Of a stretch of DNA of 25,008 nt, positions 7,320 to 22,897 are shown piece by piece. Below the pieces are notes generated by a model that saw nothing but the letters and a program-made list of their open reading frames with translations, had not been told where the DNA came from and made no database searches. The stretch's first letter is position 1. Every line of letters starts with the position of its first letter. This DNA comes from an uncultured virus (IMG/VR IMGVR_UViG_3300011567_000001). Lineage: Duplodnaviria; Heunggongvirae; Uroviricota; Caudoviricetes. Where the stretch lies: positions 62,001 through 87,008 of IMG/VR virus record IMGVR_UViG_3300011567_000001; one strand, given 5' to 3'. A program made the translations under genes and the position numbers.

Positions 7320-7348
7320 AGAATAGCAAGCATCACCCACCAAGTCAA
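7320..7348 (-). promoter_or_regulatory. sigma70 promoter
   Basis: TTGACT-N17-TATTCT. Confidence 0.7.
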
Positions 7349-8226
7349 TCAGTTTTTAAAAAGAAATCCCAAGATTTTATCGATTGTAAAACTCTATCAT
7401 CTACTTGATCTTGATAGTCTTTGCATATCATATCAATGACATAAGATTTTTCCTTGTTATACCAATCATAACCCTCTTGCTCTGAATCAAAGCGCCCGCA
7501 CTTTTTAACACCTTCATAGCTTCTCAGAGATATATTGAACTTGTTCCATTTGTCCCAAAACCCTTTAGGTGGTTTTATGAGCAGACTATTAACCCTTGGT
7601 GGTATAAAAGCACAGACATCAGGACCATATTCTTTATTACCTCGTTTAATAATGTCCTTATCTAACTGCCAAGATTTCATATTAAAACCTTTTTGATCTA
7701 AACACCATTCAGCAAAGTTTTGAAAATTATGCCAGTTCTTGTCAACTGATTTATCAAAATAGTTTATAAATTCCGGGTCAATGTCGTAGCAACGACGGAT
7801 CATAGGACACCAATGTTTATACTGCTTTTTAGCATTAGCACTATTGTAATCACCAACACCCATGAATCCTACTCCACAAAACATAGGAAGATTATAATCT
7901 TGAATACGGCCTGTTTTTATATTAAAAGCGGGAAAGCAGTCAACAGTTCCTGTATTTAGGAACTTTACCATTACCTTTTCTGTATTAAAGTATTCCAGTA
8001 TTCGAACTGGGCCATAATTTATTGTATCAAATAACTCTCCTACTTTATTTTTCATAGAGTTAGTCCAATCTTTTACCTGACCTCTACGGAACTCAGTTGA
8101 GCGAATTTCAGTGGTATAACCTGTATTTAAAAATCTGACAGTGCAACGCTTACCGTTTAGCTCTATAAGTTCATAAGAGCCAAAGTTAGTAGTGTGTGCA
8201 ATCTCTCCTAGCATAAGTCTTTTCAA
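7345..8226 (-). CDS. free-standing HNH-type homing endonuclease with two N-terminal repeats
   Basis: W-x-N-F-x-N-F-x-x-W...LDKDII-x-x-GNKEYGP-x-x-C-x-FIP motif; tandem T-x-N-[FY]-G...V-[RK]-FLNTG repeats; AT-rich. Confidence 0.8.
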   Translation of the reverse strand: MKRLMLGEIAHTTNFGSYELIELNGKRCTVRFLNTGYTTEIRSTEFRRGQVKDWTNSMKNKVGELFDTINYGPVRILEYFNTEKVMVKFLNTGTVDCFPAFNIKTGRIQDYNLPMFCGVGFMGVGDYNSANAKKQYKHWCPMIRRCYDIDPEFINYFDKSVDKNWHNFQNFAEWCLDQKGFNMKSWQLDKDIIKRGNKEYGPDVCAFIPPRVNSLLIKPPKGFWDKWNKFNISLRSYEGVKKCGRFDSEQEGYDWYNKEKSYVIDMICKDYQDQVDDRVLQSIKSWDFFLKTD

Positions 8227-8253
8227 AATTAAATCTCCTAAATTTAAAAATTA

Positions 8254-8282
8254 AGAATACGACAAAGCCCCTATTGCGTCAA
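8254..8282 (-). promoter_or_regulatory. sigma70 promoter overlapping a terminator-like hairpin
   Basis: TTGACG-N17-TATTCT; AGCCCCTAT/ATAGGGGCT stem at 8266-8294. Confidence 0.65.
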
Positions 8283-8314
8283 CAGATAGGGGCTAGTATT
8301 TTCAATTGAATTTA

Positions 8315-8446
8315 TTAATCAGCAATCACCCACCGATTAGTTTTTCCTCGACGCTGATTACGAAGTTGTTTCGTTTGCTTCTTTTCCTGGCTACGTTCAG
8401 CACGATATTCAAAGTCCTTCATGCTACTAGCTTTTACAGTTTTCAT
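8315..8446 (-). CDS. small basic protein (43 aa, MKTVKASSMK...)
   Basis: Read manually; TAATG overlap with the upstream gene. Confidence 0.6.
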   Translation of the reverse strand: MKTVKASSMKDFEYRAERSQEKKQTKQLRNQRRGKTNRWVIAD

Positions 8447-8640
8447 TATTCAGATACCTTCTTAAACGGTTGAATCATGTAGTTCCAATCACCCAACTCA
8501 GGAGAGTAAAACTTCTTACCATCAATACTCATCTGAGTCACTTGGATAATGGAACCTTTACGCAGTCCGAAGCTGCTATTAGAAGTCGTGTAACGTTTGT
8601 CTTCTGTAAGTTCGTACTTACCACACGCAATCACGTTCAT
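8446..8640 (-). CDS. hypothetical protein (64 aa)
   Basis: Operon packing. Confidence 0.7.
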   Translation of the reverse strand: MNVIACGKYELTEDKRYTTSNSSFGLRKGSIIQVTQMSIDGKKFYSPELGDWNYMIQPFKKVSE

Positions 8641-8753
8641 TTCTTACTTCCTTCTACAGTGACAAACCATTGACCATTCTGTTTGAACAACTTGTGTTTC
8701 TGCCCAGCTTTGAAAAGATTGTAGCTGGTTTCGAAGGCTTGTTGAACACTCAT
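8637..8753 (-). CDS. small protein (38 aa, MSVQQAFETS...)
   Basis: Read manually; GAGGA SD; ATGA overlaps. Confidence 0.6.
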   Translation of the reverse strand: MSVQQAFETSYNLFKAGQKHKLFKQNGQWFVTVEGSKK

Positions 8754-8923
8754 TTCTGATTATCCTCGTGATTCAAGTAAACTTCAATAGCAGCTTTTAG
8801 GCAAGATTTTAGGTTGTTAAACAGTGTGGCGTTTACCTCTTGGTACTCAGAAATTTTATCAAGAAGTTCCCATGCGGCATCATTCAAGGAATCTGAGCCA
8901 AGGTCAATCTCTTTGTTTTCCAT
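8750..8923 (-). CDS. small protein (57 aa, MENKEIDLGS...)
   Basis: Read manually; GAGGTG SD. Confidence 0.65.
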   Translation of the reverse strand: MENKEIDLGSDSLNDAAWELLDKISEYQEVNATLFNNLKSCLKAAIEVYLNHEDNQK

Positions 8924-8924
8924 C

Positions 8925-9152
8925 TTAAGCCACCTCTTTTATTTGCTCTTTAACAAAACGATCAAGCATTTCAATCCCCATGAAGTTAATTACATCCTCA
9001 AGAGCTTCTTCGTCGTAGCTTACGTATACGTTACCGTTATAAATCTGAACCATTTTCTCTACAGCATAGCTATCTTCGTGACCTTTAATGTAGCTTACAG
9101 TTACGATTACGTCCAGGCAGTTAATGACGATTTCTTTCTTAAGAATGTTCAT
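8925..9152 (-). CDS. hypothetical protein (75 aa)
   Basis: Downstream of promoter 9202-9230. Confidence 0.7.
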   Translation of the reverse strand: MNILKKEIVINCLDVIVTVSYIKGHEDSYAVEKMVQIYNGNVYVSYDEEALEDVINFMGIEMLDRFVKEQIKEVA

Positions 9153-9201
9153 AATCTCTATCTCTTCATTTGTGAGCTGCTGTCTGCTGCTCTGTGATGT
9201 C

Positions 9202-9230
9202 AGTATCGTCTAATCAGAACTACCTGTCTA
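9202..9230 (-). promoter_or_regulatory. sigma70-like promoter
   Basis: TAGACA-N17-GATACT, followed by an A/C-rich leader like the other early promoters. Confidence 0.55.
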
Positions 9231-9275
9231 CTACCGTTCGTCGCCTTCAACCTAGGCCAACAACTGCATTCCTCA

Positions 9276-9542
9276 TCAGGCTTGTGACATCTTGGACAGA
9301 TTAGAAGAAGCATGGCTATCTCCTTGAGCATATTCTAGCAAAAGGTTCTTGATGTCTTCATAACGGATGACAGGTCCGGTTGGTTCTGATGCATCAAGCA
9401 AGAGATCGACAGCCCTACCTAGCTTGACTTTTAGATCATTGATCTTTTTCCTTTGTTCAGAATCATGCTCTGCAATTACTGCACGATATTTGACAGGAAA
9501 GTCCTCTTTTAAAATCGTTGAATAGAACTCATATTTGTTCAC
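9276..9542 (-). CDS. hypothetical protein (88 aa)
   Basis: GAGGAG SD; GTG start. Confidence 0.7.
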   Translation of the reverse strand: MNKYEFYSTILKEDFPVKYRAVIAEHDSEQRKKINDLKVKLGRAVDLLLDASEPTGPVIRYEDIKNLLLEYAQGDSHASSNLSKMSQA

Positions 9543-9553
9543 TTATATCTCCT

Positions 9554-9745
9554 CTAATTCACTCTAGCAATCAATTCATCCAACAACAACATCTGAAAAT
9601 CCATCAACGCTTGAGCTGCAATAGCATCAGCTTCCATCCCGTCTTGTTTGAACAGCTTTACATTCAAGCTGTTCACGTCGATTAGGATTTGCAAAGCGTC
9701 TTCTAAGTCATCGGCGCATAGCTTATAGGTGAATTCTCGGTTCAT
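9554..9745 (-). CDS. hypothetical protein (63 aa)
   Basis: TAATG overlap with the upstream gene. Confidence 0.7.
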   Translation of the reverse strand: MNREFTYKLCADDLEDALQILIDVNSLNVKLFKQDGMEADAIAAQALMDFQMLLLDELIARVN

Positions 9746-9936
9746 TATTGACCCCCTTCGCCGGCCTGGGCGCGCATGGCGGCGTCGATGGCTGCATCAT
9801 CCCAATCAGCCGGGTGCGCATCGTTCTCCCGCAGCCACCGATACCGCCCCGCATCCTTCCGCACCGCCTCCACCCGCGCCAGGGTTTCTTTAAGCTTAGC
9901 ATTCTCTTCCATCAGATCATCAATCTTCTTACACAT
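9745..9936 (-). CDS. chimeric small protein with a DAxRYRWLR...AIDAAM C-terminal module
   Basis: GGAGG SD before MCKKID; motif common in proteobacterial temperate-phage proteins; 3' part 72% GC. Confidence 0.75.
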   Translation of the reverse strand: MCKKIDDLMEENAKLKETLARVEAVRKDAGRYRWLRENDAHPADWDDAAIDAAMRAQAGEGGQ

Positions 9937-9937
9937 A

Positions 9938-10189
9938 TCAAATTCCTCCAATTGATTTAACAACTTTATTCACCAAATCACCAAGACTCTTAGATGAGTC
10001 TATCACTTGACCAGATTCTTTGCAGTGCCAAATGTCTGTCTTGTTGAATGTGTAGCCTAGGTCTTTGAGGATGCGTTGGGAGTTGGCTGTGTTTGTCTTC
10101 CAATTGTTACTATATTGCATGTCTATCAATCCAACCATGTCAATTTTGCGACACGGCAATCTTTTCCTTACATAGTAAACATGTTCCAA
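9938..10189 (-). CDS. hypothetical protein (83 aa)
   Basis: GAGGT SD; TTG start. Confidence 0.6.
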   Translation of the reverse strand: MEHVYYVRKRLPCRKIDMVGLIDMQYSNNWKTNTANSQRILKDLGYTFNKTDIWHCKESGQVIDSSKSLGDLVNKVVKSIGGI

Positions 10190-10270
10190 TACTCTAGCGC
10201 TACCTCATAAACAAAAGGTCCTTCAACTTCGTATGCACCGTAAAATTCTTGGACCACTACAAACAAGCCT

Positions 10271-10525
10271 TCAATTTTGTCCATCATAAATCTCCTTAAA
10301 CTCTAGAATGAATTGTCGGTATGCCTTGTCTTCTGCACTCATCTTAGCTAAGTCAGATTCTGATGCCAACACCCAAGGATTGATAAAGTTTTCTATCACA
10401 TTCTTAGAATCGATAGCTATTGCATATCGTAGATCGTCTTTTGCCATCAGACGGTCAGGGGACTCTTTGGTTGGGATTGAGTTGAGGAGGTTCATCAGAT
10501 CACTCACAGAAAATCCTCTATCCAC
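10271..10525 (-). CDS. hypothetical protein (84 aa)
   Basis: Operon packing. Confidence 0.65.
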   Translation of the reverse strand: MDRGFSVSDLMNLLNSIPTKESPDRLMAKDDLRYAIAIDSKNVIENFINPWVLASESDLAKMSAEDKAYRQFILEFKEIYDGQN

Positions 10526-10695
10526 ATATCAGAATCTTTCTTTGCCACGTACTCAGGATTTGACTCCCAATACTTTTGATAATTTGCCTTACGCCAAGCC
10601 AAAGTATCTTTAGCAAAGCGATAATTCCAACTCTTGTAGCCAAACTCCTCAAAGAACCACAAGATGTACCTGACCTGCCAAATTAATTTTTTCAT
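10504..10695 (-). CDS. hypothetical aromatic-rich protein (63 aa)
   Basis: GGAG SD; ATGA overlap. Confidence 0.65.
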   Translation of the reverse strand: MKKLIWQVRYILWFFEEFGYKSWNYRFAKDTLAWRKANYQKYWESNPEYVAKKDSDMWIEDFL

Positions 10696-11051
10696 ACCGT
10701 ATACTCCACAGATTTAATGTTAGAGAATTCCTGTATTGCTAGCGTGCAGGCAGCACAAGGCATAGCTAAACAAGGAACTCCTTTGCTGTCAACACGGGCG
10801 ACAATTAATTTCACACCACGCCGCTTCCGATCCTTTAGCAATGCCGCCACTTCGCTGTGGAGGTAGCATTTCTGTGGATTGCCAGTCCTACGACCATAGT
10901 TAAACATGCTTGTGTGGGTCTTAGAATAGCTGTTAGATGCTTCCGATACCATCCTACCTTTAGCATCCAATACAACGCACCAGAGGCGTTTCTGACCCCT
11001 TATAAACGGGATTTGAGATGCCTTCTCTATGCAGTAGTCAAGATTGCTCAT
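10692..11051 (-). CDS. Zn-dependent cytidine/dCMP-type deaminase-fold protein
   Basis: HSE...PCAAC (HxE / PCxxC) motifs. Confidence 0.8.
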   Translation of the reverse strand: MSNLDYCIEKASQIPFIRGQKRLWCVVLDAKGRMVSEASNSYSKTHTSMFNYGRRTGNPQKCYLHSEVAALLKDRKRRGVKLIVARVDSKGVPCLAMPCAACTLAIQEFSNIKSVEYTV

Positions 11052-11265
11052 TTTCCCTGCTCTTCAAATAGCTTACCAAATCGTTATACTGATCAAACAT
11101 ATCAGAATAAAGCTCAGCCGACACAGGCATGTGAGCAACAGCAGAGATGAACCCTCTTAGCTCACTTAGCAGAGTATCACGAATGATGAAGAACTCAGGC
11201 TGGCGAGCTTGGTTGATACGAAATTCTAGCTCACGGAGTAGACGGGTTTGGTTTTCGATGTTCAT
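11038..11265 (-). CDS. hypothetical protein (75 aa)
   Basis: AAGGGGA SD. Confidence 0.7.
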   Translation of the reverse strand: MNIENQTRLLRELEFRINQARQPEFFIIRDTLLSELRGFISAVAHMPVSAELYSDMFDQYNDLVSYLKSRENEQS

Positions 11266-11267
11266 GG

Positions 11268-11510
11268 CTATTCCCCTTTATTGTCATAATCAATAAACAT
11301 ATCACGCTGTCTCAACAGCTGGTCAGCATACAGATATGCAACACCACAGACAGCCTCTTCAGCACGGCTAGCATTAGGACCTACAGTAGCGATCAAAGCT
11401 TGCATAGCCTTAGCTGCGAAGTAATCACGAAGGCTCATTCCATTAGAGGGACGAAGGGAGTGTGTACCTTCAAATGGAAAAGCATTGCCACCAGTTTCAT
11501 TTTTACTCAT
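11268..11510 (-). CDS. conserved phage protein (GGxAFP...GMSLRDYFAAKAMQ family)
   Basis: Recognisable widespread phage motif of unknown function. Confidence 0.8.
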   Translation of the reverse strand: MSKNETGGNAFPFEGTHSLRPSNGMSLRDYFAAKAMQALIATVGPNASRAEEAVCGVAYLYADQLLRQRDMFIDYDNKGE

Positions 11511-11911
11511 ATCTTTTTACCCCTGTACTTATAGAAATCAGGCTTTGCATTGATCCTTTCGGCAATTCTGTCTCGGTTGATAAGGATTGCTTCTGGTGTT
11601 GGTGTGCAGTCTAGCAAGCTCCAGTCAGGAAGGCAAGCATAGCGACGTGACCATTCGTCGATGTCAAAGCTGTAGTTGAAACCCCTGTCATACCACTCTG
11701 CTAACAGGTCAAGTGCTCTGCCGTAGATGTATGTGGCTTTATCTAGAAAGAATTTGCAGTGACCCGTACCCAGGACGTATTGACTTGGTATGTCTTTTGG
11801 TTTTCTTGCACACTTCTCAATCAGCATAAAGATTCTAGTTATCTCCCGTAGCTCAGCCAAGCAGTGGGCATCGGTCAGTTCGGTAACAGGCACGCAATTC
11901 ACTCTAGTCAT
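11507..11911 (-). CDS. denV: pyrimidine-dimer DNA glycosylase / endonuclease V
   Basis: MTRVN...AELREITR aligns with the T4 DenV N-terminus (Thr2, Arg22, Glu23, Arg26); LGTGH-x-KFF motif; start moved to the ATG at 11911. Confidence 0.9.
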   Translation of the reverse strand: MTRVNCVPVTELTDAHCLAELREITRIFMLIEKCARKPKDIPSQYVLGTGHCKFFLDKATYIYGRALDLLAEWYDRGFNYSFDIDEWSRRYACLPDWSLLDCTPTPEAILINRDRIAERINAKPDFYKYRGKKI

Positions 11912-11958
11912 ATCAATACCTTCAATAATCACTATCAATGAAAACAATAATCCATTTG

Positions 11959-11987
11959 TTGCAGATTAGAGCTTTCCGTTATACAAT
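11959..11987 (+). promoter_or_regulatory. sigma70 promoter firing into the non-coding structured region
   Basis: TTGCAG-N17-TACAAT. Confidence 0.55.
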
Positions 11988-11993
11988 GGTTGT

Positions 11994-12445
11994 TGGATTA
12001 TTTCCATGGGCGTTTACCACGGTTTCCCCAGCCTTAGCAGGTAGAAGCAAAACCCGCCATAACTGGTTTGTTGAGGTCAGTATAGTTGATGCTGACCGAT
12101 GATGCAAGACCTTTTAAAACAAAGTGGAGGCTCTGAATAGCCGCAACCTCCGATGCTGCCCAACGAGCCCGGCACCTGTACAACTGAATGAGAAGGTACG
12201 ATGCTTTCTCTGGCATGTCAAGGACTGATGTGCTTCCTGCGATAGTCGTAGGTTGTATGGCCCTAGAGGGTTAAATCTAGGGAGATGACATGTTCCATGG
12301 GAAAGGACATGAAGCTTGATTAGCTGTCAGGCTTAGGTATACTGGATTCTGTATAGACCCTCACTAAGGTCTAGCTTGTAGCTGTGATGAACCCCTCTGG
12401 TTCGGAGCTATGGGCAGCAGATGAAGGTGATCTTGTGCACCCTAA
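11994..12445 (+). ncRNA. putative large structured non-coding RNA (unassigned class)
   Basis: No credible ORF; more than 10 helices including nested long-range pairs; G-U wobbles favour the plus strand; ends are approximate. Confidence 0.6.
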
Positions 12446-12450
12446 AGAAA

Positions 12451-12479
12451 AGTATAAAGCTATCACTCATCCCTTTCTA
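12451..12479 (-). promoter_or_regulatory. sigma70-like promoter (leftward)
   Basis: TAGAAA-N17-TATACT. Confidence 0.45.
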
Positions 12480-12505
12480 ATAAAATCTTTCAATCCATAA
12501 ATCCC

Positions 12506-12533
12506 TTGCATCCTCATCAGATCGTGGTAATCT
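12506..12533 (+). promoter_or_regulatory. sigma70 promoter for the rightward operon
   Basis: TTGCAT-N16-TAATCT with extended -10 TG; A/C-rich leader. Confidence 0.65.
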
Positions 12534-12572
12534 AGACCTATCGAAAGCAAACACACCAATGAGGTGAGCGAG

Positions 12573-12953
12573 ATGATTATTGTTAAAGTAGATAGTGAGT
12601 TTGGTAGCTATCACAAATTTGTAAACCAAGGCTTTGATGTTCACTCAGCTTACCATCACATTGATTCTTATGCAGAGCCGATAAATTCCAAAGACTGGTC
12701 GGCATGCCCTTGCTGCAAGCTTAAGCCTAGGGTATGGATATTCGACAATGGTCGTTCTACAGCTTGTGGGTGCTGGAACAGTCGTTACGAAATCTTCTCT
12801 GTCAAGGCCGAGTCAATCATGTCTGTTTACAAACGTACCGGTATGACTGCCGAGTACGATGCGGATGCACTACGCAGGAACTGGAACGAATACTGCGCTA
12901 CAGAAATTAACCCTTGCAACCATGCAGACCTTTTGCTAGAATCTAAATGGTAA
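12573..12953 (+). CDS. Cys-rich putative Zn-binding protein (weak Lar-like pattern)
   Basis: CPCC...CGC...RNWN; GAGGTG SD. Confidence 0.7.
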   Translation: MIIVKVDSEFGSYHKFVNQGFDVHSAYHHIDSYAEPINSKDWSACPCCKLKPRVWIFDNGRSTACGCWNSRYEIFSVKAESIMSVYKRTGMTAEYDADALRRNWNEYCATEINPCNHADLLLESKW

Positions 12954-12974
12954 ATCTACCAGTGGGTAAGTATC

Positions 12975-13253
12975 ATGAACTGCCAAGAAAAACGCAAAGC
13001 AATCCGTGACTACATCAGCAACATTGTGGACCAAGATTTTTATACGGTCGTATTCACCAAGAAGACCACTGGTGAGGTTCGGACCATGAATGCCCGCCAG
13101 AACGTTAAAAAGCACAGTCACGGTGGTGTCAACCCTTGTGCAGGTAAAGATGATCTGCTCCCTACCTTTGATGTAAAGATTGGTCAGTATCGCACGGTAT
13201 GGGTTGACGGGATTCAAGAGATTCGACATAATGGTTCTGTGATTCGATTCTGA
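12975..13253 (+). CDS. WYL-like / Sm-like SH3 beta-barrel protein
   Basis: V-x-F-T-K-K-x-x-GE-x-R-x-M...F-D-x-x-x-x-x-Y-R pattern typical of phage WYL_2-like proteins. Confidence 0.65.
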   Translation: MNCQEKRKAIRDYISNIVDQDFYTVVFTKKTTGEVRTMNARQNVKKHSHGGVNPCAGKDDLLPTFDVKIGQYRTVWVDGIQEIRHNGSVIRF

Positions 13254-13266
13254 TAGGAGATTTTCG

Positions 13267-13521
13267 ATGAGTTTTGTAACTATTAAAAGGAAAAATGGTA
13301 CATTTAGGTATTGGAATTCACCCGTTAAAAACGACAACACCTCTTTACAAACAGATTATCAAACAGCAGAACGATATATTCTGTCAAGCTACCTTCCGAT
13401 TCATTGGAATATTTGTCAGAAAGTGCTCGATGGATATGAGCTAAAGTATCCTCTTGATATTTATGGAATTGCCCATCTAAGACTGATTCTTGAAGATAAG
13501 ATGACCGGAGAATTTAAATGA
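13267..13521 (+). CDS. hypothetical protein (84 aa)
   Basis: AGGAG SD. Confidence 0.7.
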   Translation: MSFVTIKRKNGTFRYWNSPVKNDNTSLQTDYQTAERYILSSYLPIHWNICQKVLDGYELKYPLDIYGIAHLRLILEDKMTGEFK

Positions 13522-13718
13522 CTCTTAACCAGCTTGACATGTTGAATGCAGAAGAACTCTTGGAACTTGCTCGTGATAATGTCTTGGCCGTTGATGGGTA
13601 TAACATGAGCGAGATTGTCATGAAGGTTGCTGATTGGAAATACAAAGAAGGGTGGGAAGAAGGCTCTCAGGACGGTTATCGTAGGGGTAAGCTATATGGT
13701 TTCCGAGATAACTATTGA
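13518..13718 (+). CDS. hypothetical protein (66 aa)
   Basis: GGAG SD; ATGA overlap. Confidence 0.7.
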   Translation: MTLNQLDMLNAEELLELARDNVLAVDGYNMSEIVMKVADWKYKEGWEEGSQDGYRRGKLYGFRDNY

Positions 13719-13902
13719 ACAATCTCACCAAGAGCTATATGATGCTTGCAAATCTATCCTGGTGATGTTAGACTTTTACGAAGAACTACAGCTTGAGGTG
13801 GAATGGTTTAGGATAGATAGTCCTAGGCTGATTGTGATTAGGCAAGCTGTGTTAAATGCTGAGAGATTATTAGAGGAGATGAGTGATGGTAAATCAATTT
13901 GA
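13696..13902 (+). CDS. hypothetical protein (68 aa)
   Basis: AGGGGT SD before MVSEI. Confidence 0.65.
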   Translation: MVSEITIEQSHQELYDACKSILVMLDFYEELQLEVEWFRIDSPRLIVIRQAVLNAERLLEEMSDGKSI

Positions 13903-14077
13903 TGCACAATGTCAGCTATTCTATGATGCTTTAGAAAGCATGCCTATTAGCTTCTTGAATGAGCTTGCGGAGAATCTTCCTGTCTATGTTCAACAGCGAA
14001 AGCTTAAAGCGGCTGATGCTTTGATTGAGGGGAAGCAGAGGATGTTGAAACGGGCACATTTAAAGGTGGTGAAATAA
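13886..14077 (+). CDS. hypothetical protein
   Basis: GAGGAG SD. Confidence 0.7.
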   Translation: MVNQFDAQCQLFYDALESMPISFLNELAENLPVYVQQRKLKAADALIEGKQRMLKRAHLKVVK

Positions 14078-14268
14078 TGGCTAAGGAAATGATTTGGACA
14101 GGCGGCTTTGCTATTTGGATGTTCTTGTGCGGATATATCACAGGCATTCCTTTTAAGGCAGATCAGCGACTACTTGATGAGGCTAAGACTGTATTGGCTG
14201 AATGTCAAAAGAACTTACCTCGTAGTCAAGTATGCGAACTGACGGCTAAAGTGAAGGAGAGCAAGTGA
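14077..14268 (+). CDS. small N-terminally membrane-anchored protein
   Basis: Hydrophobic N-terminus; C-x-x-x-LPR-x-Q-x-C motif. Confidence 0.7.
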   Translation: MAKEMIWTGGFAIWMFLCGYITGIPFKADQRLLDEAKTVLAECQKNLPRSQVCELTAKVKESK

Positions 14269-14426
14269 TGAATATGAAAAATGCTATTGTGGCTGCTTAC
14301 GTATACGCCTATGAAGCAGGTATTATTAACTCTCGTGAAGAAATGCTTGAGAAGCTTGTTATTGAGCTAACCAAACAGCTTGAGCGCATGGAACAGCAGG
14401 AAGCTCTGCGAGTAAGTAAAAAATGA
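14268..14426 (+). CDS. small protein (52 aa)
   Basis: Read manually; AAGGAG SD; TGATG overlap. Confidence 0.65.
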   Translation: MNMKNAIVAAYVYAYEAGIINSREEMLEKLVIELTKQLERMEQQEALRVSKK

Positions 14427-14542
14427 TCACTATCGCCAGCTATATTTTGCTGAACTATTATGTGGGGACAACCTGGAGCGGGTGGTTGATGGTATTGCCT
14501 GTATTGCTGGATTTGGCGCTGATTGATAGGATTAGTAAATGA
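14423..14542 (+). CDS. small hydrophobic protein (39 aa)
   Basis: Read manually; ATGA overlaps at both ends. Confidence 0.55.
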   Translation: MITIASYILLNYYVGTTWSGWLMVLPVLLDLALIDRISK

Positions 14543-14820
14543 ACAAAGGATTTGAAATTACTTCGCTTAAACAAAAAGATATAGCTGAGTATTTCAAAAG
14601 TGCACCTGAATGGGCACAGTGGTTAGCAAAGGACAGAGATGGGATTTGCTATTGGTTTGAAAACCAACCAAAGTATAATAAACGAGGAAATTGGAAGGAT
14701 ATAACCCCAGACGGTAAGGTTAAGCTTTGTGGTAAAACTTCTTTGAATACAGGTAAGTATCTTTGGAGCAGAGATGGTAAAATGGTCCAAGGTGAATCAT
14801 ACGGGAGGGCCAGTAAATGA
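14539..14820 (+). CDS. hypothetical phage protein (APEWA-x-W-x-A-x-D-x-DG motif)
   Basis: Common phage motif; ATGA overlap with the primase gene. Confidence 0.7.
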   Translation: MNKGFEITSLKQKDIAEYFKSAPEWAQWLAKDRDGICYWFENQPKYNKRGNWKDITPDGKVKLCGKTSLNTGKYLWSRDGKMVQGESYGRASK

Positions 14821-16550
14821 AAGAAGGTACTCTGCTGTTTCATACAAGCTGCCTAGAGTGTGAATCTTCTGACGGCATGGCTGTATATGAGAAAGAAAAA
14901 GAAGACGGAACCACGGTTGTAGATTGCTGGTGCTTTGTCTGTAATAAATACTTTGGTCCAGAAATTGCTAAGGAGGCTAAGTTGGAACCTGCTGAGAACT
15001 ATAAAGCGCGTGAGCATGTAGAAACTGATTTTAGTGATATTGAAGCTATCCCATTTCGGGGTTGGAAAGCTCGTGGTATTGGTCAACCTGTATCGGCTAA
15101 GTATGGTGTGCATACTGAGGTTGAGGGTGAATTTGATGTAAAGGCTCGATACTACCCTTCGACTAAAGATGGTAAGATTGTAGGATTTAAGAAGCGCTCA
15201 ACACCTAAAAGTTTTACTGGAATCGGTAGTACCAAAGCCACTAACGAACTCTTTGGGCAATCTGTATTTGAAGCTGGTCAGAAATATCTTGTGATTACCA
15301 CAGGCGAGGAAGACGCCCTCAGTTTTGCCCAAGCACTATACAGCAAGAAAGATAGTGCAGAGTATTGGACGCCTTGTGTTAGCGTGACTTGTGGTGATGG
15401 TAGTATTATCAAACAATTCAAGGCTAACTTTGAATACCTGAATAGCTTTGAAAAGGTTATCTTGGCATTTGATAATGATGACAATGCACAACAGTATGTA
15501 GAACAAGCAGCACGACTACTGAGCCCTGGTAAAGTCTTTATTGCTAAGTTCCCTGCTGGCGTTAAAGATGCTTCGGATATGGTTAAAGCTGGCCGTTCCG
15601 CTGAACTTAAACAAATCTTCTGGAAGGCGGTGCCTTTTAGTCGCGTAGACGTTCTGCACCTTAGTCAGATGTGGGATGATTTCGAGAGCGAAGATAACAA
15701 TGTAAAGATTCCTCTTCCTAGCTCTTGGTCTCATCTGAATGAGATGATGGGTGGTGGTATGGAAAAGGGTGAGATTACAATCATCGGAGCTTTGACCAGT
15801 ATTGGTAAGTCAACTATTGTAAATAATGTGGTATTCCACTTGATTGAGAATACACGGTTTAAGGTTGGTGCTATGTATCTTGAAGGCACTAAGCGTGAAG
15901 TAGTGCGGGATTTGCTATCGCTTGATGCCGGTGTAAACCTTCGGACCACTGATCGTTCAATGATCAATATTCAAGCTCTGAAGACTCGGTTCTTTGACAA
16001 TTTGGTTAAGAAAGATCAGTTCGTTTATGTGGATCACCAAGGTAGTATCTCTACTACGGAGATTTTCGATAAGCTGAACTATCTGGCTAAGGCTGAAAGC
16101 TGTGATGTCATTATTATTGACCCTGTCCAAGCAGGTGTGAACAGTAGTGATAACGGAGCAATCATTGAATTCATGGACACGCTGCTTAAGTTTGCTAAGG
16201 AGACAGACACTTGTGTGATCGCGGTTAGCCACATGAAGAAACCTTCAGAGGAAAACCCACATGCTGTAACGGAATACCAGCTCATGGGCTCATCCAGCTT
16301 GAATCAAATTGCGTTTAATACGATCTTGATCAGTCGCGATAAGATGAACCCTGATCCTATTAAACGGTCAGCAACCAAGCTTCAGCTAGTAAAATGTCGT
16401 CGCACTGGTAACACAGGTGATGCAGGGTGGCTGCGATACGATAACGCTACTACGCACATGTTTGCTACACCTGATCCATATGTTGAGCAATCTCTTGATC
16501 CGCAGCCTCAAGACTATGGTAGTCGTGAAGAAGTTGTGGTAGACTTTTAA
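14817..16550 (+). CDS. bifunctional DNA primase-helicase (T7 gp4-like)
   Basis: N-terminal Cys4 Zn finger; TOPRIM (GEEDA, FDND, KDASD); DnaB-like helicase (SIGKST, YLE, IIIDP, VSH, KCRRTG). Confidence 0.95.
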   Translation: MKEGTLLFHTSCLECESSDGMAVYEKEKEDGTTVVDCWCFVCNKYFGPEIAKEAKLEPAENYKAREHVETDFSDIEAIPFRGWKARGIGQPVSAKYGVHTEVEGEFDVKARYYPSTKDGKIVGFKKRSTPKSFTGIGSTKATNELFGQSVFEAGQKYLVITTGEEDALSFAQALYSKKDSAEYWTPCVSVTCGDGSIIKQFKANFEYLNSFEKVILAFDNDDNAQQYVEQAARLLSPGKVFIAKFPAGVKDASDMVKAGRSAELKQIFWKAVPFSRVDVLHLSQMWDDFESEDNNVKIPLPSSWSHLNEMMGGGMEKGEITIIGALTSIGKSTIVNNVVFHLIENTRFKVGAMYLEGTKREVVRDLLSLDAGVNLRTTDRSMINIQALKTRFFDNLVKKDQFVYVDHQGSISTTEIFDKLNYLAKAESCDVIIIDPVQAGVNSSDNGAIIEFMDTLLKFAKETDTCVIAVSHMKKPSEENPHAVTEYQLMGSSSLNQIAFNTILISRDKMNPDPIKRSATKLQLVKCRRTGNTGDAGWLRYDNATTHMFATPDPYVEQSLDPQPQDYGSREEVVVDF

Positions 16551-16551
16551 T

Positions 16552-16569
16552 GGAGGGGTAATTCCCTCC
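16552..16569 (+). promoter_or_regulatory. hairpin immediately upstream of the polymerase SD
   Basis: GGAGGG-GTAATT-CCCTCC; no U-tract. Confidence 0.4.
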
Positions 16570-16587
16570 TACATTTAAGGAGGATAA

Positions 16588-18720
16588 ATGACTGACTTTA
16601 TTAAGGGTGATTGGATTTTTGATATTGAAACTTACCCCAACGTGTTCACTTTCTGCGCCGTTTACGCTAATGGCAAGGGTGTTCGAGTATTTGAGGTAAG
16701 TGATCGTAAGAATGAAATTGAGCAAGTTCTGGATTTTCTACGCAAAGTTGTATCTAACAAGCATCGCCTAGTCGGCTTTAACAACGTAGGTTTTGATTAT
16801 CCAGTTCTGCATCACATTCTTGAGAAAGCACGCAAGGCATTTAAAGCAGGAAAGAAAGTAAAGATCACTGCTACTGAAATCTATGATGTGGCAATGAATC
16901 TTATTAACTCACAGAGAGATGAGAAGTTTGGTAATGCAATCAAACCTAAGGATGTAATAATTCCGCAGGTTGATTTGTATAAGGTTCATCATTTTGATAA
17001 CAAGGCTCGGGCAACTTCTCTTAAGATGCTTGAGTTTAATATGCGGTCAGAGACAATTGAGGATTTACCTTTTCCAGTGGGAACAGAGCTAAACTCAATT
17101 CAGATTGATACTCTGATTCACTATAACAAACACGATGTCATGGAAACCCTGCGTTTCTACCATCACTCAGTTAAAGCTTTGAAGTTTCGTGAAGAACTAA
17201 CACAGAAGTATGGGTTTGATTGCACTAACTTTAATGACACCAAGATTGGTAAGCAGTATTTTATCAATCGTCTTGAAAGTGAAATGCCAGGAAGCTGCTA
17301 CAAGGTTGGTAAATATGGTCGTACAATCAATCAAACTAAGCGGGACGTGATCCATCTAAAGGATGCGATCCTACCTTACATTAAATACGAACGACCAGAG
17401 TTTAACGCTCTGCTAAATTGGTTCAAAAAGCAGAGTATCACTGAGACCAAAGGTGTCTTCACTGACATTTTGGAAAGCGATCTTGGTCCAGACCTTGCAA
17501 AGTATGCACAGCTACACACCAAGCGAAAGAAGCTATTTAAAGCTCCTACAGAGGCTCAGATTGAAGAGTTTAAGAAAGACAAGCCTCTATGCTGGGTTGA
17601 GGAAATTGAGCTTAAAGGAAAGGAAACAAAGGCTAATGGGGGCGGTCAGAAGAAAACTTACTGGCTGTATTGGAATGTAGCAGAAACATTGAACGTGGTT
17701 GTAGATGGGTTTCGACTAGATTTTGGTACTGGTGGTATTCACGGTAGCGTAGAGTCAAGAATTGTGCGTTCTGATGAGCGTCAAGTTATTGACGATCGAG
17801 ATGTTGCCAGCTACTACCCCAACCTTGCAATCTCGAATGATGTTTACCCTAAGCACTTGGGTAAGAACTTCTGTAAGATTTATAAGGACGTTTATGATGA
17901 GCGCAAGAGTTTTCCGAAAGGTAGCCCAGAAAATGCGGTAATGAAATTGGCACTCAATGGGGTATATGGCGATAGCAACAGTGAGTTCAGTCCGTTCTTC
18001 GACGCACTCTACACAATGACTATCACCATTTCAGGACAGCTTTCGCTTTGTATGTTGATTGAAAAGCTTTTGAAAGTTAAAGACTTAACCATGGTTCAGG
18101 CGAATACGGACGGTATTACTTTCAAGCACAATCGAAGCGATGATCCAGTAGTTGACAAGATCGTAAAAGAATGGGAAAATGTTACCAAGCTTGAAATGGA
18201 ACGGAATGATTATTCAATGATGGCAATTCGGGATGTAAATTCTTACTTAGCTATTTATGAAAAAGATGGCTCAGTAAAGCGCAAGGGCGCCTATGAATAT
18301 GCTGGTTTGGACTGGAACAAGAATCATAGCTCTCTTGTCATTCCTATGGCGGCTGAGCATGAGATTCTAGGTAAAGGTAAGGCTGAAGACTTCATCAAAG
18401 CACACAAAATCAAGTGGGATTTTCTCCTGCGTACTAAGGTTCCTCGGAATTCCAGTCTTGTGCTCGTTATGGACGATGGCGAGGAACTAAAGCAGCAAAA
18501 TATTTGTCGATACTATCCGTCTGAGGAAGGTGGTAAGCTTGTCAAACTAATGCCGGCACTTGCTGGTAAAGAAGCTGAAGGTGATCGCAGGCTTTCTATT
18601 GATACAGACTGGAAGGTTAAGACTTGCAACAAAATTGAACAGTTTGATTGGGATGATCTAAACTACGATTACTATATTAAGGAAGCTCGAAAACTTATTG
18701 ACCCATTGATTAAGGATTAA
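16588..18720 (+). CDS. DNA polymerase, family-B-like, with 3'-5' exonuclease
   Basis: Exo DIETY, GFNNVGFDY, YNKHD; polymerase DVASYYPN, KLALNGVYG, NTDG. Confidence 0.93.
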   Translation: MTDFIKGDWIFDIETYPNVFTFCAVYANGKGVRVFEVSDRKNEIEQVLDFLRKVVSNKHRLVGFNNVGFDYPVLHHILEKARKAFKAGKKVKITATEIYDVAMNLINSQRDEKFGNAIKPKDVIIPQVDLYKVHHFDNKARATSLKMLEFNMRSETIEDLPFPVGTELNSIQIDTLIHYNKHDVMETLRFYHHSVKALKFREELTQKYGFDCTNFNDTKIGKQYFINRLESEMPGSCYKVGKYGRTINQTKRDVIHLKDAILPYIKYERPEFNALLNWFKKQSITETKGVFTDILESDLGPDLAKYAQLHTKRKKLFKAPTEAQIEEFKKDKPLCWVEEIELKGKETKANGGGQKKTYWLYWNVAETLNVVVDGFRLDFGTGGIHGSVESRIVRSDERQVIDDRDVASYYPNLAISNDVYPKHLGKNFCKIYKDVYDERKSFPKGSPENAVMKLALNGVYGDSNSEFSPFFDALYTMTITISGQLSLCMLIEKLLKVKDLTMVQANTDGITFKHNRSDDPVVDKIVKEWENVTKLEMERNDYSMMAIRDVNSYLAIYEKDGSVKRKGAYEYAGLDWNKNHSSLVIPMAAEHEILGKGKAEDFIKAHKIKWDFLLRTKVPRNSSLVLVMDDGEELKQQNICRYYPSEEGGKLVKLMPALAGKEAEGDRRLSIDTDWKVKTCNKIEQFDWDDLNYDYYIKEARKLIDPLIKD

Positions 18721-18722
18721 TT

Positions 18723-19391
18723 GTGCAGGAAATTTGGAAAGACATTAAAGAATATGAAGGCATTTATCAGGTTAGCAATTTAGGTAGAGTTAAACGACTA
18801 AAGGTTTTACGGTTGATGAGTAATCAGGTAACCTCTTGGGAACAAATCTTTGAAGAATACATTTTCAAACCAAGCAATGATACAAGAGGTTATCCACAAG
18901 TTTTACTTACCATGGGTAAAAGAAAAAGGGTAGCAAGAGTGCATAGACTGGTAGCCGAATGTTTCTTGCAAGAACCCAGTGAAGAACTTGTCAATACTTG
19001 TAAATTAGCAGGTTTGGACTATGTTCTTGTTAATCACAAAGACAATGACCCAATGAACAATGCTTATACAAATCTTGAGTGGTGTAGTCCTAAATTTAAC
19101 TGTGATTGGTGCGTGACGTCCGGTACTCACAATACAGATACAATAAAAGGATCAAAAAATTATAATTCTGAGTTGACAGAAGAAAATGTTTCTGACATAG
19201 TTAAACTTCTAAAGGAAAGAACTCTTAGTCAACAGAAAATCGCAGACATGTATGGGGTTAAACAGATAACTATTTCAAACATATGGACAGGTAGGAGCTG
19301 GTCATGGTTTACTGGAATCCCTTGGAAACCGAGGAGTCGAAAGAAAGGTAAAATTTCTGAGTCACTATCGGAATCACTAAAAACCCGTTGA
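18723..19391 (+). CDS. NUMOD4-HNH homing endonuclease with C-terminal HTH
   Basis: EIWKDI..YEG.YQVSNLGRVK (NUMOD4); VHRLVA...VNHKD...NN...NLEW; SQQKIADMYGV. Confidence 0.9.
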   Translation: MQEIWKDIKEYEGIYQVSNLGRVKRLKVLRLMSNQVTSWEQIFEEYIFKPSNDTRGYPQVLLTMGKRKRVARVHRLVAECFLQEPSEELVNTCKLAGLDYVLVNHKDNDPMNNAYTNLEWCSPKFNCDWCVTSGTHNTDTIKGSKNYNSELTEENVSDIVKLLKERTLSQQKIADMYGVKQITISNIWTGRSWSWFTGIPWKPRSRKKGKISESLSESLKTR

Positions 19392-22303: not shown

Positions 22304-22897
22304 GTGAAACTTGTTTTCGGTGTTGGCATTAATGATGCTGATTATAATGTCTACAAAACAGACAGTTCAGACGGAAAGTGGAAAATTATTTGGAAATGCC
22401 CTTTCTACGTGACTTGGACAAATATGTTAAATAGGTGTTACGGTAAGAAGTACAAAGAAAAACAACCGACCTATGCGGGCTGTTATGTCCAAGAGTCTTG
22501 GAAGTACTTTATGACGTTCAGGGCTTGGATGATTCATCAAAATTGGGAGGATAAACAATTAGATAAAGATATACTGTTCCCCGGCAATAGGGAATATGGC
22601 GTTGACAGTTGTGTCTTTGTTGATCGCAAAGTAAATTCTTTTATGAATGAACACAAAAACTCTAGCGGTGAGTGGCCTGTCGGCGTTAATTTCAACAAAG
22701 GAAAGGGTAAATTCCAAGCAGCTTGCTGTAATGTAATTACTGGAAAGCAGCAACACCTTGGTTATTTTGCCTGCCCAGAAGTAGCACATAAAGCATGGTT
22801 ATCTTTTAAGCTAGAACAAGCTAAGATTCTGGCAAGTGAACAAACCGACCCACGAGTAGCTAAAGCCCTTATTGGCAGGTATGAAAATTATGGCTAA
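22304..22897 (+). CDS. HNH-type homing endonuclease with AP2-like C-terminus
   Basis: GVGIND...W..ML.RCY...LDKDIL.PGNREY...C.FV; PVGV.F.K..GKF.A...HLGYF...AH.AW. Confidence 0.85.
   Translation: MKLVFGVGINDADYNVYKTDSSDGKWKIIWKCPFYVTWTNMLNRCYGKKYKEKQPTYAGCYVQESWKYFMTFRAWMIHQNWEDKQLDKDILFPGNREYGVDSCVFVDRKVNSFMNEHKNSSGEWPVGVNFNKGKGKFQAACCNVITGKQQHLGYFACPEVAHKAWLSFKLEQAKILASEQTDPRVAKALIGRYENYG

Follow-up and report, generated by a model that had tools for sequence, protein, structure and literature searches.

To our knowledge, few bacterial or phage RNAs of several hundred nucleotides and complex fold are known outside ribosomal RNA, RNase P, tmRNA, and introns, and each known RNA of such size and complexity has led to new biology or to a new RNA architecture. 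We analyzed a 25,008-nt stretch of DNA (hereafter, the window) comprising bases 62001–87008 of an 87,008-bp record from an uncultured Caudoviricetes virus (IMG/VR IMGVR_UViG_3300011567_000001), which carries direct terminal repeats, and we describe here a non-coding element of ~460 nt located near the middle of this window. A preliminary description made from the sequence had proposed that the element encodes a large, structured plus-strand phage RNA with its own promoter and of a class it did not recognize, a proposal that our comparative analysis supports. Several characterized RNAs resemble the element in one respect or another. The phi29 pRNA is ~174 nt long and simply folded, is transcribed from an early promoter bordering the early region, and acts in trans as a folded particle; the HK022 put RNAs are two stem-loops of ~70 nt that lie directly behind an early promoter and ahead of an operon of mixed genes; ColE1 RNA II is ~550 nt long and its fold matters; and the HEARO/IscB omega RNA family requires an adjacent IscB gene. 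A recent report places two other large RNAs, ROOL and GOLLD, in phages and prophages, often near tRNA islands (10.1101/2024.12.08.627333).

Like ROOL and GOLLD, the element is phage-encoded, several hundred nucleotides long, and built from many covarying helices, with no protein partner or known function. It differs from both (Rfam accessions presumably RF03087 for ROOL and RF01998 for GOLLD) in giving no covariance-model match, whether at the gathering score, at E up to 10 at the locus, or at E up to 5 in nine other loci. It also differs in its setting, behind an early-type promoter at a strand switch in lytic-looking 80–90-kb phages, and was not found in bacterial genomes. By ARAGORN, tRNA genes accompany the RNA at a single locus out of 21 and are absent from the window, a difference that reflects a tendency of the ROOL and GOLLD families and no strict criterion. 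(At one homologous locus, L219:1922–2184 on the minus strand of that locus, Met, Arg, and Gly tRNA genes lie ~350 nt upstream of the RNA and on the same strand.) With phi29 pRNA, the element shares being a structured phage RNA with an early promoter at the edge of the early region, but it has no Rfam match, its phage group is unrelated, and nothing observed connects it with packaging. It occupies the same kind of position as the put RNAs, behind an early promoter and ahead of mixed genes, but is six times larger, contains long-range helices, and has no excess of downstream terminators. ColE1 RNA II and the T4 and T7 origin transcripts are likewise promoter-driven non-coding transcripts where replication could start; the element matches none of them in sequence or family, and close relatives of the phage are without it. 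Finally, it resembles the HEARO/IscB omega RNA in being a large structured RNA next to ORFs with an HNH domain, but such ORFs were found at only 2 of the 15 scanned homologous loci (246 aa at L213 and 277 aa at L211), with no RuvC hit and no Rfam match. We set this assignment aside, having found no adjacent IscB ORF (RuvC plus HNH, ≥400 aa).

Consistent with the preliminary description, searches against known families were negative. At the gathering score, Rfam 15 matched nothing across the whole window; at E up to 10 it gave only chance-level snoRNA and miRNA matches in 11800–12700, and nine loci from other lineages, searched at E up to 5, were also negative. Neither ARAGORN nor Rfam identified a tRNA, tmRNA, RNase P RNA, 6S RNA, or SRP RNA, and no Rfam model of a self-cleaving ribozyme (hammerhead, twister, pistol, hatchet, or HDV-like) matched. 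A group I intron was rejected, as there is no match to the Rfam core and the element lies between genes without flanking exons; the features of a riboswitch or cis-regulatory leader were likewise not seen, as we found no common downstream pathway, no terminator-like site, and no supported loop-to-tail pairing. A nucleotide search of cultured phages (INPHARED) with elements from three of the lineages defined below (clades A, B, and C) gave no match, although short conserved motifs would escape such a search, and a limited search of the full-text literature found no description of the RNA. Within the sources compared (Rfam 15, cultured phages, and full-text literature), we conclude that the RNA family is new.

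The gene and its promoter are placed as follows.

11994–12455, plus strand: the whole RNA gene, ~460 nt, delimited by column conservation, nhmmer, and covariance-model homologs.

11959–11964 and 11982–11987, plus strand: sigma-70-like promoter, TTGCAG and TACAAT separated by a 17-nt spacer, with a predicted start at ~11994–11997.

We compared 60 loci encoding relatives of the helicase of this phage, and a 661-base query region was present in only 3 of them. Two carry the whole element at 93.5 to 95.7% identity, while the third, L003, has only 75 bases in common, located downstream of the element (12477–12551). In a three-way alignment within clade A, variable columns amounted to 23 of 59 in 11900–11958, 5 of 35 in 11959–11993, 10 of 462 in 11994–12455, and 35 of 105 in 12456–12560. 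The low variation in 11994–12455 means that the borders originally drawn match a block far more constrained than the adjacent protein genes; in the two carriers, the adjoining endonuclease V is 53 to 57% identical at the protein level and the downstream ORF129 is absent, while the helicase is 98 to 100% identical. As had been proposed, the segment holds no credible ORF: none longer than 60 aa overlaps it, and the short ORFs (up to 60 aa) that do overlap keep neither a constant position nor a constant strand across lineages.

A profile of the element matched a diverged copy at locus L037, where it lies on the opposite strand relative to the helicase. From sequence shared by this copy's clade (B) and that of the window (A), we derived scan motifs, the most specific of which was GGCGTTT-N4-8-GGTTYCC-N8-30-A(A)GCAAAACC. 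This pattern identified 14 loci in viral contigs, all 14 confirmed by the profile, and 25 loci in metagenome contigs, of which 12 were confirmed at E ≤ 2e-9, one was weak (E 0.15), and 12, mostly G+C-rich, were unconfirmed. Among 185,579 species genomes there were 8 matches in unrelated phyla, which we take as chance because none has the neighboring P1 pairing described below. Among the matches listed by two looser motif scans, most were attributable to chance; in one of these scans, 21 of 27 loci had no profile match. Acinetobacter phage vB_AbaM_B9, whose polymerase is 51% identical, was considered as a carrier and rejected, as it is without the motif of the 5' domain and its gene order is different. 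After removal of duplicates there were 36 distinct sequences, and the confirmed ones fall into approximately eight lineages.

Clade A: the window, L002, L046, and L064.

Clade B: L037, L134, L227, L238, L242, L246, L249, and L079.

Clade B': L220.

Clade C: L104 and L219.

Clade E: L245.

Clade F: L240, which ends with its contig and covers the first 400 nt only.

Clades D (L218 and L223) and G (L224): only the 5' domain in common.

The full architecture is present in six lineages including the truncated clade F, and the complete set is common to clades A, B, B', C, and E. Its defining features, all of which are found in the window, are GGCGUUU-N4-8-GGUUYCC-hairpin-AAGCAAAACC behind a −10 box, a stem-loop with a conserved CAA, a long-range helix, the motif GAYAGUCGUA, and the loops GGGUUAAR, AYGGGRAA, and YUYACURR. 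Invariant and unpaired among these are GGCGUUU, GGUUYCC, AAGCAAAACC, the three loops, and, probably, GAYAGUCGUA.

Single-sequence folds of lineage representatives gave the same order of hairpins with differing stem sequences. The central part of the element, four hairpins of which (HpG, HpY, Hp3, and Hp4) were tested formally for covariation, contains the following features.

12241–12250, plus strand: conserved GAUAGUCGUA, consensus GAYAGUCGUA, present in clades A, B, B', E, C, and F.

12261–12282, plus strand: hairpin HpG, CCCUAGA/UCUAGGG, loop GGGUUAAA.

12289–12311, plus strand: hairpin HpY, with a bulged U and loop AUGGGAAA.

12312–12334, plus strand: hairpin Hp3, AAGCUUGAU/GUCAGGCUU.

12338–12355, plus strand: hairpin Hp4, UAUAC/GUAUA, with a two-base overlap with Hp5.

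12354–12373, plus strand: hairpin Hp5, UAGACC/GGUCUA, loop CUCACUAA, consensus YUYACURR.

We built a covariance model (R1) of the central domain, comprising these four hairpins, from clades B and B' only, so that the seed contained none of the clades supplying the changes described here. R1 matched clade E (33.7 bits), the clade C member L104 (27.8 bits), and all four members of clade A (25.3–25.8 bits), for a total of 15 matches in 29 sources; L219 and L240 were missed even though the RNA is present there by other criteria. In the resulting alignment, 97.4% of 265 cells were standard pairs and 7 of the 265 were unpaired. Compensatory changes, the check proposed in the preliminary description, were abundant: 21 of 25 pairs changed on both sides, a count reached by none of 500 shuffles, and the covariation score was 0.618 compared with 0.174 in shuffles (0 of 500 reached 0.618). 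As a control, moving the 3' partners by 1–3 columns left only 26 to 47% of cells paired and 3–5 pairs changed on both sides. The changes extend over every helix in the model, with both sides altered in 5 of 6 pairs of HpG (helix 1), 6 of 7 of HpY (helix 2), 7 of 7 of Hp3 (helix 3), and 3 of 5 of Hp4 (helix 4). The loop-anchored stems behaved similarly. HpG, with its loop GGGUUAAR, forms 6–8 bp in 7 of 7 lineage representatives with at least 6 different stems, and Hp5 forms 4–8 bp in 7 of 7 with seven different stems; together these make 4–8 bp in 14 of 14 cases, whereas ≥4 bp occur around 2.6% of arbitrary 8-nt windows.

The same alignment identifies the strand. Summed over the per-pair table, it contains 29 G-U or U-G cells; these would be mismatches on the opposite strand, which makes the plus strand the folded molecule, as had been argued from G-U pairs in the window. 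Folding energy was less informative. The plus strand folds at −153 kcal/mol (z = −2.28, with 1 of 100 shuffles as good) and the minus strand at −143.7 kcal/mol (z = −3.38); the expected excess over shuffles is therefore present but modest, and energy alone does not discriminate between strands.

Outside the R1 domain, we traced six further helices lineage by lineage, and their sequences differ between lineages. The element is a discrete, conserved, plus-strand unit with at least 10 helices that covary between lineages. The features flanking the central domain are these.

12007–12054, plus strand: 5' domain, the most conserved module.

12007–12010 with 12027–12030, plus strand: helix P1, enclosing CGUUU-N5-GGUUUC.

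12031–12034 with 12039–12042, plus strand: helix P2, followed by AAGCAAAACC at 12045–12054.

12067–12123, plus strand: variable domain, UUUGUU (12067–12072) with AACAAA (12118–12123), enclosing hairpin 12075–12097 and the GCAAGACCUUU strand at 12104–12114.

12125–12152, plus strand: CAA stem-loop, UGGAGG (12125–12130) with CCUCCG (12147–12152).

12154–12162, plus strand: 5' strand of the long-range helix, UGCUGCCCA, partner 12411–12419, in the minimum-energy fold.

12190–12210, plus strand: hairpin GAGAAGGUA/UGCUUUCUC, in the fold.

12381–12409, plus strand: helix AGCUGUGAUGAACC/GGUUCGGAGCU with two facing G-A mismatches, from folds.

12411–12436, plus strand: 3' region, the 3' strand of the long-range helix (12411–12419) followed by a purine-rich tail, GAAGG..UCUUGU (12423–12436).

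In the 5' domain, P1 (3–4 bp) and P2 (2–4 bp) form in 10 of 10 lineage representatives, with differing sequences. On a sequence-only MAFFT alignment, 76.5% of P1/P2 cells were paired and the covariation score was reached by 0 of 500 shuffles, while the count of pairs changed on both sides was reached by 142 of 500. Formal support for these two helices is therefore moderate, because sequence-only MAFFT alignments misplace helices between clades. A GGUU/AACC pseudoknot, whose strands are invariant, is possible within this domain. The adjacent variable domain is missing in clade B', and its equivalents in clades B, E, and C were identified by eye from folds; within its hairpin, the C12096U change seen in relatives converts a G-C to a G-U pair. 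The CAA stem-loop has seven different stems in ten representatives around a conserved interior, C..UG...CAA. We considered a pseudoknot between its CCUCU-type loop and the purine-rich 3' tail and found it unsupported, since shuffled tails equaled the duplex length in 240–991 of 1000 trials.

The long-range helix was correctly predicted from the window: it is in the minimum-energy fold and covaries across clades, with 9 bp in clade A, 7 in B', 8 in E, and 7 in L219 of clade C, all with differing sequences. In clade B (6 bp) and in L104 of clade C (5 bp) it was found by eye, and an unconstrained search chose other duplexes there. In a variant from the DNA run X1, single bases are missing at 12156 and at 12417, two positions that pair with each other in this helix. 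UGCC at 12157–12160 could also pair locally with GGCA at 12171–12174, which would exclude the long-range helix. This local alternative is also available in clade E (CUGCC/GGCAG), not in clade B, and may be a switch or a coincidence. Further along, the 12190–12210 hairpin is replaced in clade B by a purine-rich hairpin of different sequence, and its equivalents in L249 and L037 differ on both sides of one pair (both by eye). The clade B counterpart of the 12381–12409 helix is uninterrupted and carries a two-hairpin insertion (by eye), and A12391G in L064 creates a G-U pair. At the 3' end, the conserved part of the clade B member L079/L217 ends at GAGAGAGGGUAGG, with the AUG of a 130-aa ORF one base later, so that the purine-rich tail of the RNA could serve there as the ribosome-binding site of the ORF. 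Two other ideas about conserved strings were dropped. A CsrA/RsmA sponge with GGA in loops was rejected because several lineages do not retain the GGA in the AYGGGRAA loop (by eye), and a resemblance of GGGUUAAGUC and AGUCGUAAC to 16S rRNA was set aside, as it concerns short strings only, in a different structural context.

The secondary structure in the preliminary description is right for most helices and needs correction in about three places. The hairpins it placed at 12075–12097, 12126–12151, 12190–12210, 12261–12282, 12312–12334, and 12354–12373 are in the fold and have equivalents with other sequences in other clades. The pair it drew between 12212–12220 and 12286–12294 cannot hold, because 12289–12311 form their own covarying hairpin (HpY). 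The hairpin at 12236–12252 exists in clades A and B, but changes in its 5' strand are uncompensated in B', E, and C, while GAYAGUCGUA stays. A hairpin was indeed present near 12395–12407, at imprecise coordinates; the fold pairs 12388–12393 with 12399–12404. Pairing of 12173–12183 with 12376–12386 is absent from the minimum-energy fold. The outermost pair, 12104–12114 with 12423–12436, is in the fold, but it is seen, and plausible, in clade A only, where its sole support is T12436C. This substitution, found in L064 and in run X1, turns a G-U pair into G-C by altering one side.

The proposed promoter is also present. The RNA element begins ~7 nt behind its −10 box, between genes; both hexamers are retained between clades A and B, and in most lineages a −10-like hexamer stands at a similar distance before GGCGUUU (by eye). 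A generic scan missed this promoter because its first hexamer matches only 3 of 6 consensus letters. Sites of the same type (TTGCA-N17-TAnnnT) recur rightward as CTTGCA-N17-TA(A/G)nnT at 12506–12534, 12914–12942, and 13746–13774, ahead of successive small early ORFs. The first of these is not part of the RNA and falls within the stretch 12477–12551, all that L003 has in common with this region.

12506–12534, plus strand: second promoter-like site, TTGCAT and TAATCT separated by a 17-nt spacer, ahead of ORF129; clade A.

Inside the RNA gene, the minus strand contains TTGCAT-N17-TATACT from 12107 down to 12079. Leftward transcription from this site could enter the endonuclease V operon and would be antisense to the RNA over its first ~100 nt; the genome has 21 loose matches of this kind, this one included, and it may be fortuitous. 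Our scan found no terminator-like site behind the RNA. Contigs from two metatranscriptome runs lie inside the element (12196–12346 with 1 difference in X18 and 12130–12370 with 6 differences in X19), and contigs of a third run, X11, which is an RNA library only by guess, span 11981–12559. Contigs from RNA libraries give neither strand nor ends, and DNA may contaminate such libraries, so we regard the contigs of the two metatranscriptome runs as a hint of expression only. Among the 20 public-run matches listed, the share of sampled words was at most 0.43; the runs compared with the element base by base were X1, X11, X18, and X19.

The window has a phage-type gene set, including a gp2.5-like single-strand binding protein, an exonuclease, and the following genes to which the RNA can be related.

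11507–11947, minus strand: endonuclease V-like gene (pyrimidine-dimer DNA glycosylase of the T4 endonuclease V type), first gene of the leftward block.

12564–12953, plus strand: ORF129.

14817–16550: T7-type primase-helicase.

16588–18720: family A DNA polymerase.

The strand switch noted in the preliminary description is present, with the endonuclease V-like gene as the first of the leftward genes and ORF129 as the first of the rightward ones, and the minimum of the cumulative GC skew coincides with it. In relatives, endonuclease V is only 39 to 57% identical or is located elsewhere. Cultured phages offer only distant relatives: the polymerase shares 50 to 56% identity with those of Pseudomonas, Nitrincola, and Acinetobacter phages, and the helicase is ~32% identical to those of T7-like phages. 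Three HNH homing-endonuclease-like genes lie within the 25 kb, at 7345–8226 (minus), 18723–19391 (plus), and 22304–22897 (plus), one of them directly behind the DNA polymerase gene. Together with the HNH and GIY-YIG-looking ORFs behind the RNA elsewhere, these agree with strongly mosaic early regions.

At every locus with enough flank, the genes ahead of the RNA are on the opposite strand and those behind it are on the same strand, beginning 445–577 nt past the GGCGUUU anchor; the RNA always lies directly behind a promoter-like site at the point of gene divergence. What follows it varies by lineage and includes HNH endonucleases (L213 and L211), a cell-wall hydrolase (L219), an HD-domain protein (L246), and several proteins without family; at L212, a GIY-YIG-looking ORF was recognized by eye only and had no Pfam match. 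The RNA points toward the replication genes (helicase) in clade A and away from them in clade B. Among 26 related virus records, R1 finds the RNA in 8, all of them previously identified carriers, and no copy in 18, of which 17 are estimated to be at least 95% complete. Since R1 misses some true members (L219 and L240), these 18 records are not proof of absence.

The closest relative without the RNA, L003, has a helicase 98% identical to that of the window. In the same slot it contains a 583-base non-coding gap, inside which lies a different conserved element that is common to three further contigs.

L003:903–1485 (also L269), L030:5080–5400 (also L267), L268, and L270: second conserved non-coding element, ~450–580 nt, in the same strand-switch slot of relatives without the RNA.

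Blocks shared among its copies include TTTCGACNAGACT.TGCTTTGTG and GTTGCATTTCTGACCCCA. RNAalifold on five sequences, one of which (L266) looks unrelated, gave 16 of 41 pairs with a compensatory change, and Rfam gave no match.

We are confident, at a probability of about 0.9, that a new family of structured phage RNA of ~460–480 nt exists. As to its role, our preferred reading, to which we give a probability of only about 0.4, is that of a trans-acting early accessory particle. Host RNA polymerase would transcribe the RNA early, at the head of a single early transcript, and the folded RNA, either released or attached to the messenger, would act in trans as a particle binding a host or phage macromolecule. 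Such a particle would be a decoy or scaffold for host takeover or anti-defense, rather than a regulator of the gene behind it. We favor this reading because the downstream genes are unrelated, clade A has an extra promoter, the orientation is flipped between clades, the distribution is patchy, and another element replaces the RNA in a close relative; the size and the number of helices and invariant loops also match known ornate RNAs and not short leader elements. A number of observations weigh against it. Only about six independent lineages have the full architecture, pairing is favored in the R1 alignment because the model fitted it to the structure, and the transcription data consist of contigs without strand, ends, or abundance. 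No partner protein is conserved beside the RNA, and the patchy distribution may partly reflect the limits of R1. A cis-acting or origin role would account just as well for the position behind a promoter where genes diverge. In clade B, only ~20 nt separate the conserved 3' end from the start of an ORF and no terminator is visible, so the RNA is probably co-transcribed with genes, as a leader would be.

That last arrangement is what would be expected if the RNA were a cis-acting leader of the early operon, acting either by antitermination, like HK022 put, or as a ligand-gated element, like a very large riboswitch. We consider this possible but rather unlikely. The shared layout of promoter-like site, same-strand genes behind, and diverging genes ahead is consistent with it, as are the L079 start codon directly after the purine-rich tail (by eye) and the local hairpin open to the long-range 5' strand in clades A and E, which would permit a switch. 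The absence of a common function among the downstream genes is a poor fit to a metabolite sensor, however, and in clade A a separate promoter stands downstream of the RNA, ahead of the next ORF. Terminator-like sites in 8000–17000 are not enriched (3 versus 6.7 expected), known antiterminator RNAs are far smaller, and the loop-to-tail pairing that would hide the Shine-Dalgarno-like tail is no better than with shuffled tails. The location of the element at the GC-skew minimum would also suit an origin transcript, forming a persistent hybrid or a primer for a T7-like replisome in the manner of ColE1 RNA II, T4 oriF/oriG, or the T7 primary origin. The T7-type primase-helicase, DNA polymerase, and gp2.5-like protein of the phage, and the A+T-rich stretch at 12446–12505 and second promoter that follow the RNA, are compatible with this role; a different non-coding element in the same slot of relatives is what replaceable origins would show, and an orientation flip is irrelevant to a two-way origin. 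We nevertheless rate an origin as less probable than a leader. The skew minimum has an equally good explanation in the coding-strand switch; origins of the T7 and T4 types require a promoter plus a region that unwinds, and not ten covarying helices with invariant loops; clade B has no A+T-rich spacer and its ORF follows at once; and 18 of the 26 related records have no detected copy.

The HNH ORFs directly behind the RNA at L213 and L211, the GIY-YIG-looking ORF at L212, the three HNH genes in the window, and the mosaic flanks raise the question of whether the element is a selfish ribozyme or intron-like RNA that travels with homing endonucleases and owes its conservation to gene conversion near cut sites. 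This appears improbable: searches at E up to 10 gave no hit to a group I, group II, or self-cleaving ribozyme family, an endonuclease neighbor is absent from most lineages, and the element starts within a few bases of a promoter without splitting a gene, leaving it no exons to join. Covariation over distant clades, in addition, reflects long-term selection on the fold. It is least probable, to the point of being hard to entertain, that the element does not act as RNA but is a control region at the level of double-stranded DNA, carrying operators for divergent promoters, or codes for small proteins. Its location between divergent gene blocks, the minus-strand promoter-like site inside it, and the overlapping short ORFs would fit such an explanation, but pair changes on both sides and many G-U pairs are meaningless for double-stranded DNA or a reading frame, no ORF keeps its position or strand across lineages, and the minus-strand match is one of many loose ones in the genome.

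With clear borders, a promoter, strong comparative support, and a compact size, this RNA suits chemical probing and cryo-EM, and it is useful as a marker and annotation for an uncultured family of 80–90-kb phages. If the early, accessory, and exchangeable pattern reflects RNA-based host takeover or counter-defense, the principle would be one barely documented for lytic phages. A bolder version of the trans-acting particle, which we regard as speculative, is a stand-alone ornate RNA of a new class (a ribozyme, multimeric assembly, or decoy directed at a host defense or host factor) that is one of at least two unrelated large RNAs swapped in a single slot by closely related lytic phages. If true, these phages would possess an exchangeable RNA cassette behind divergent early promoters, comparable to the protein anti-defense cassettes of other phages.

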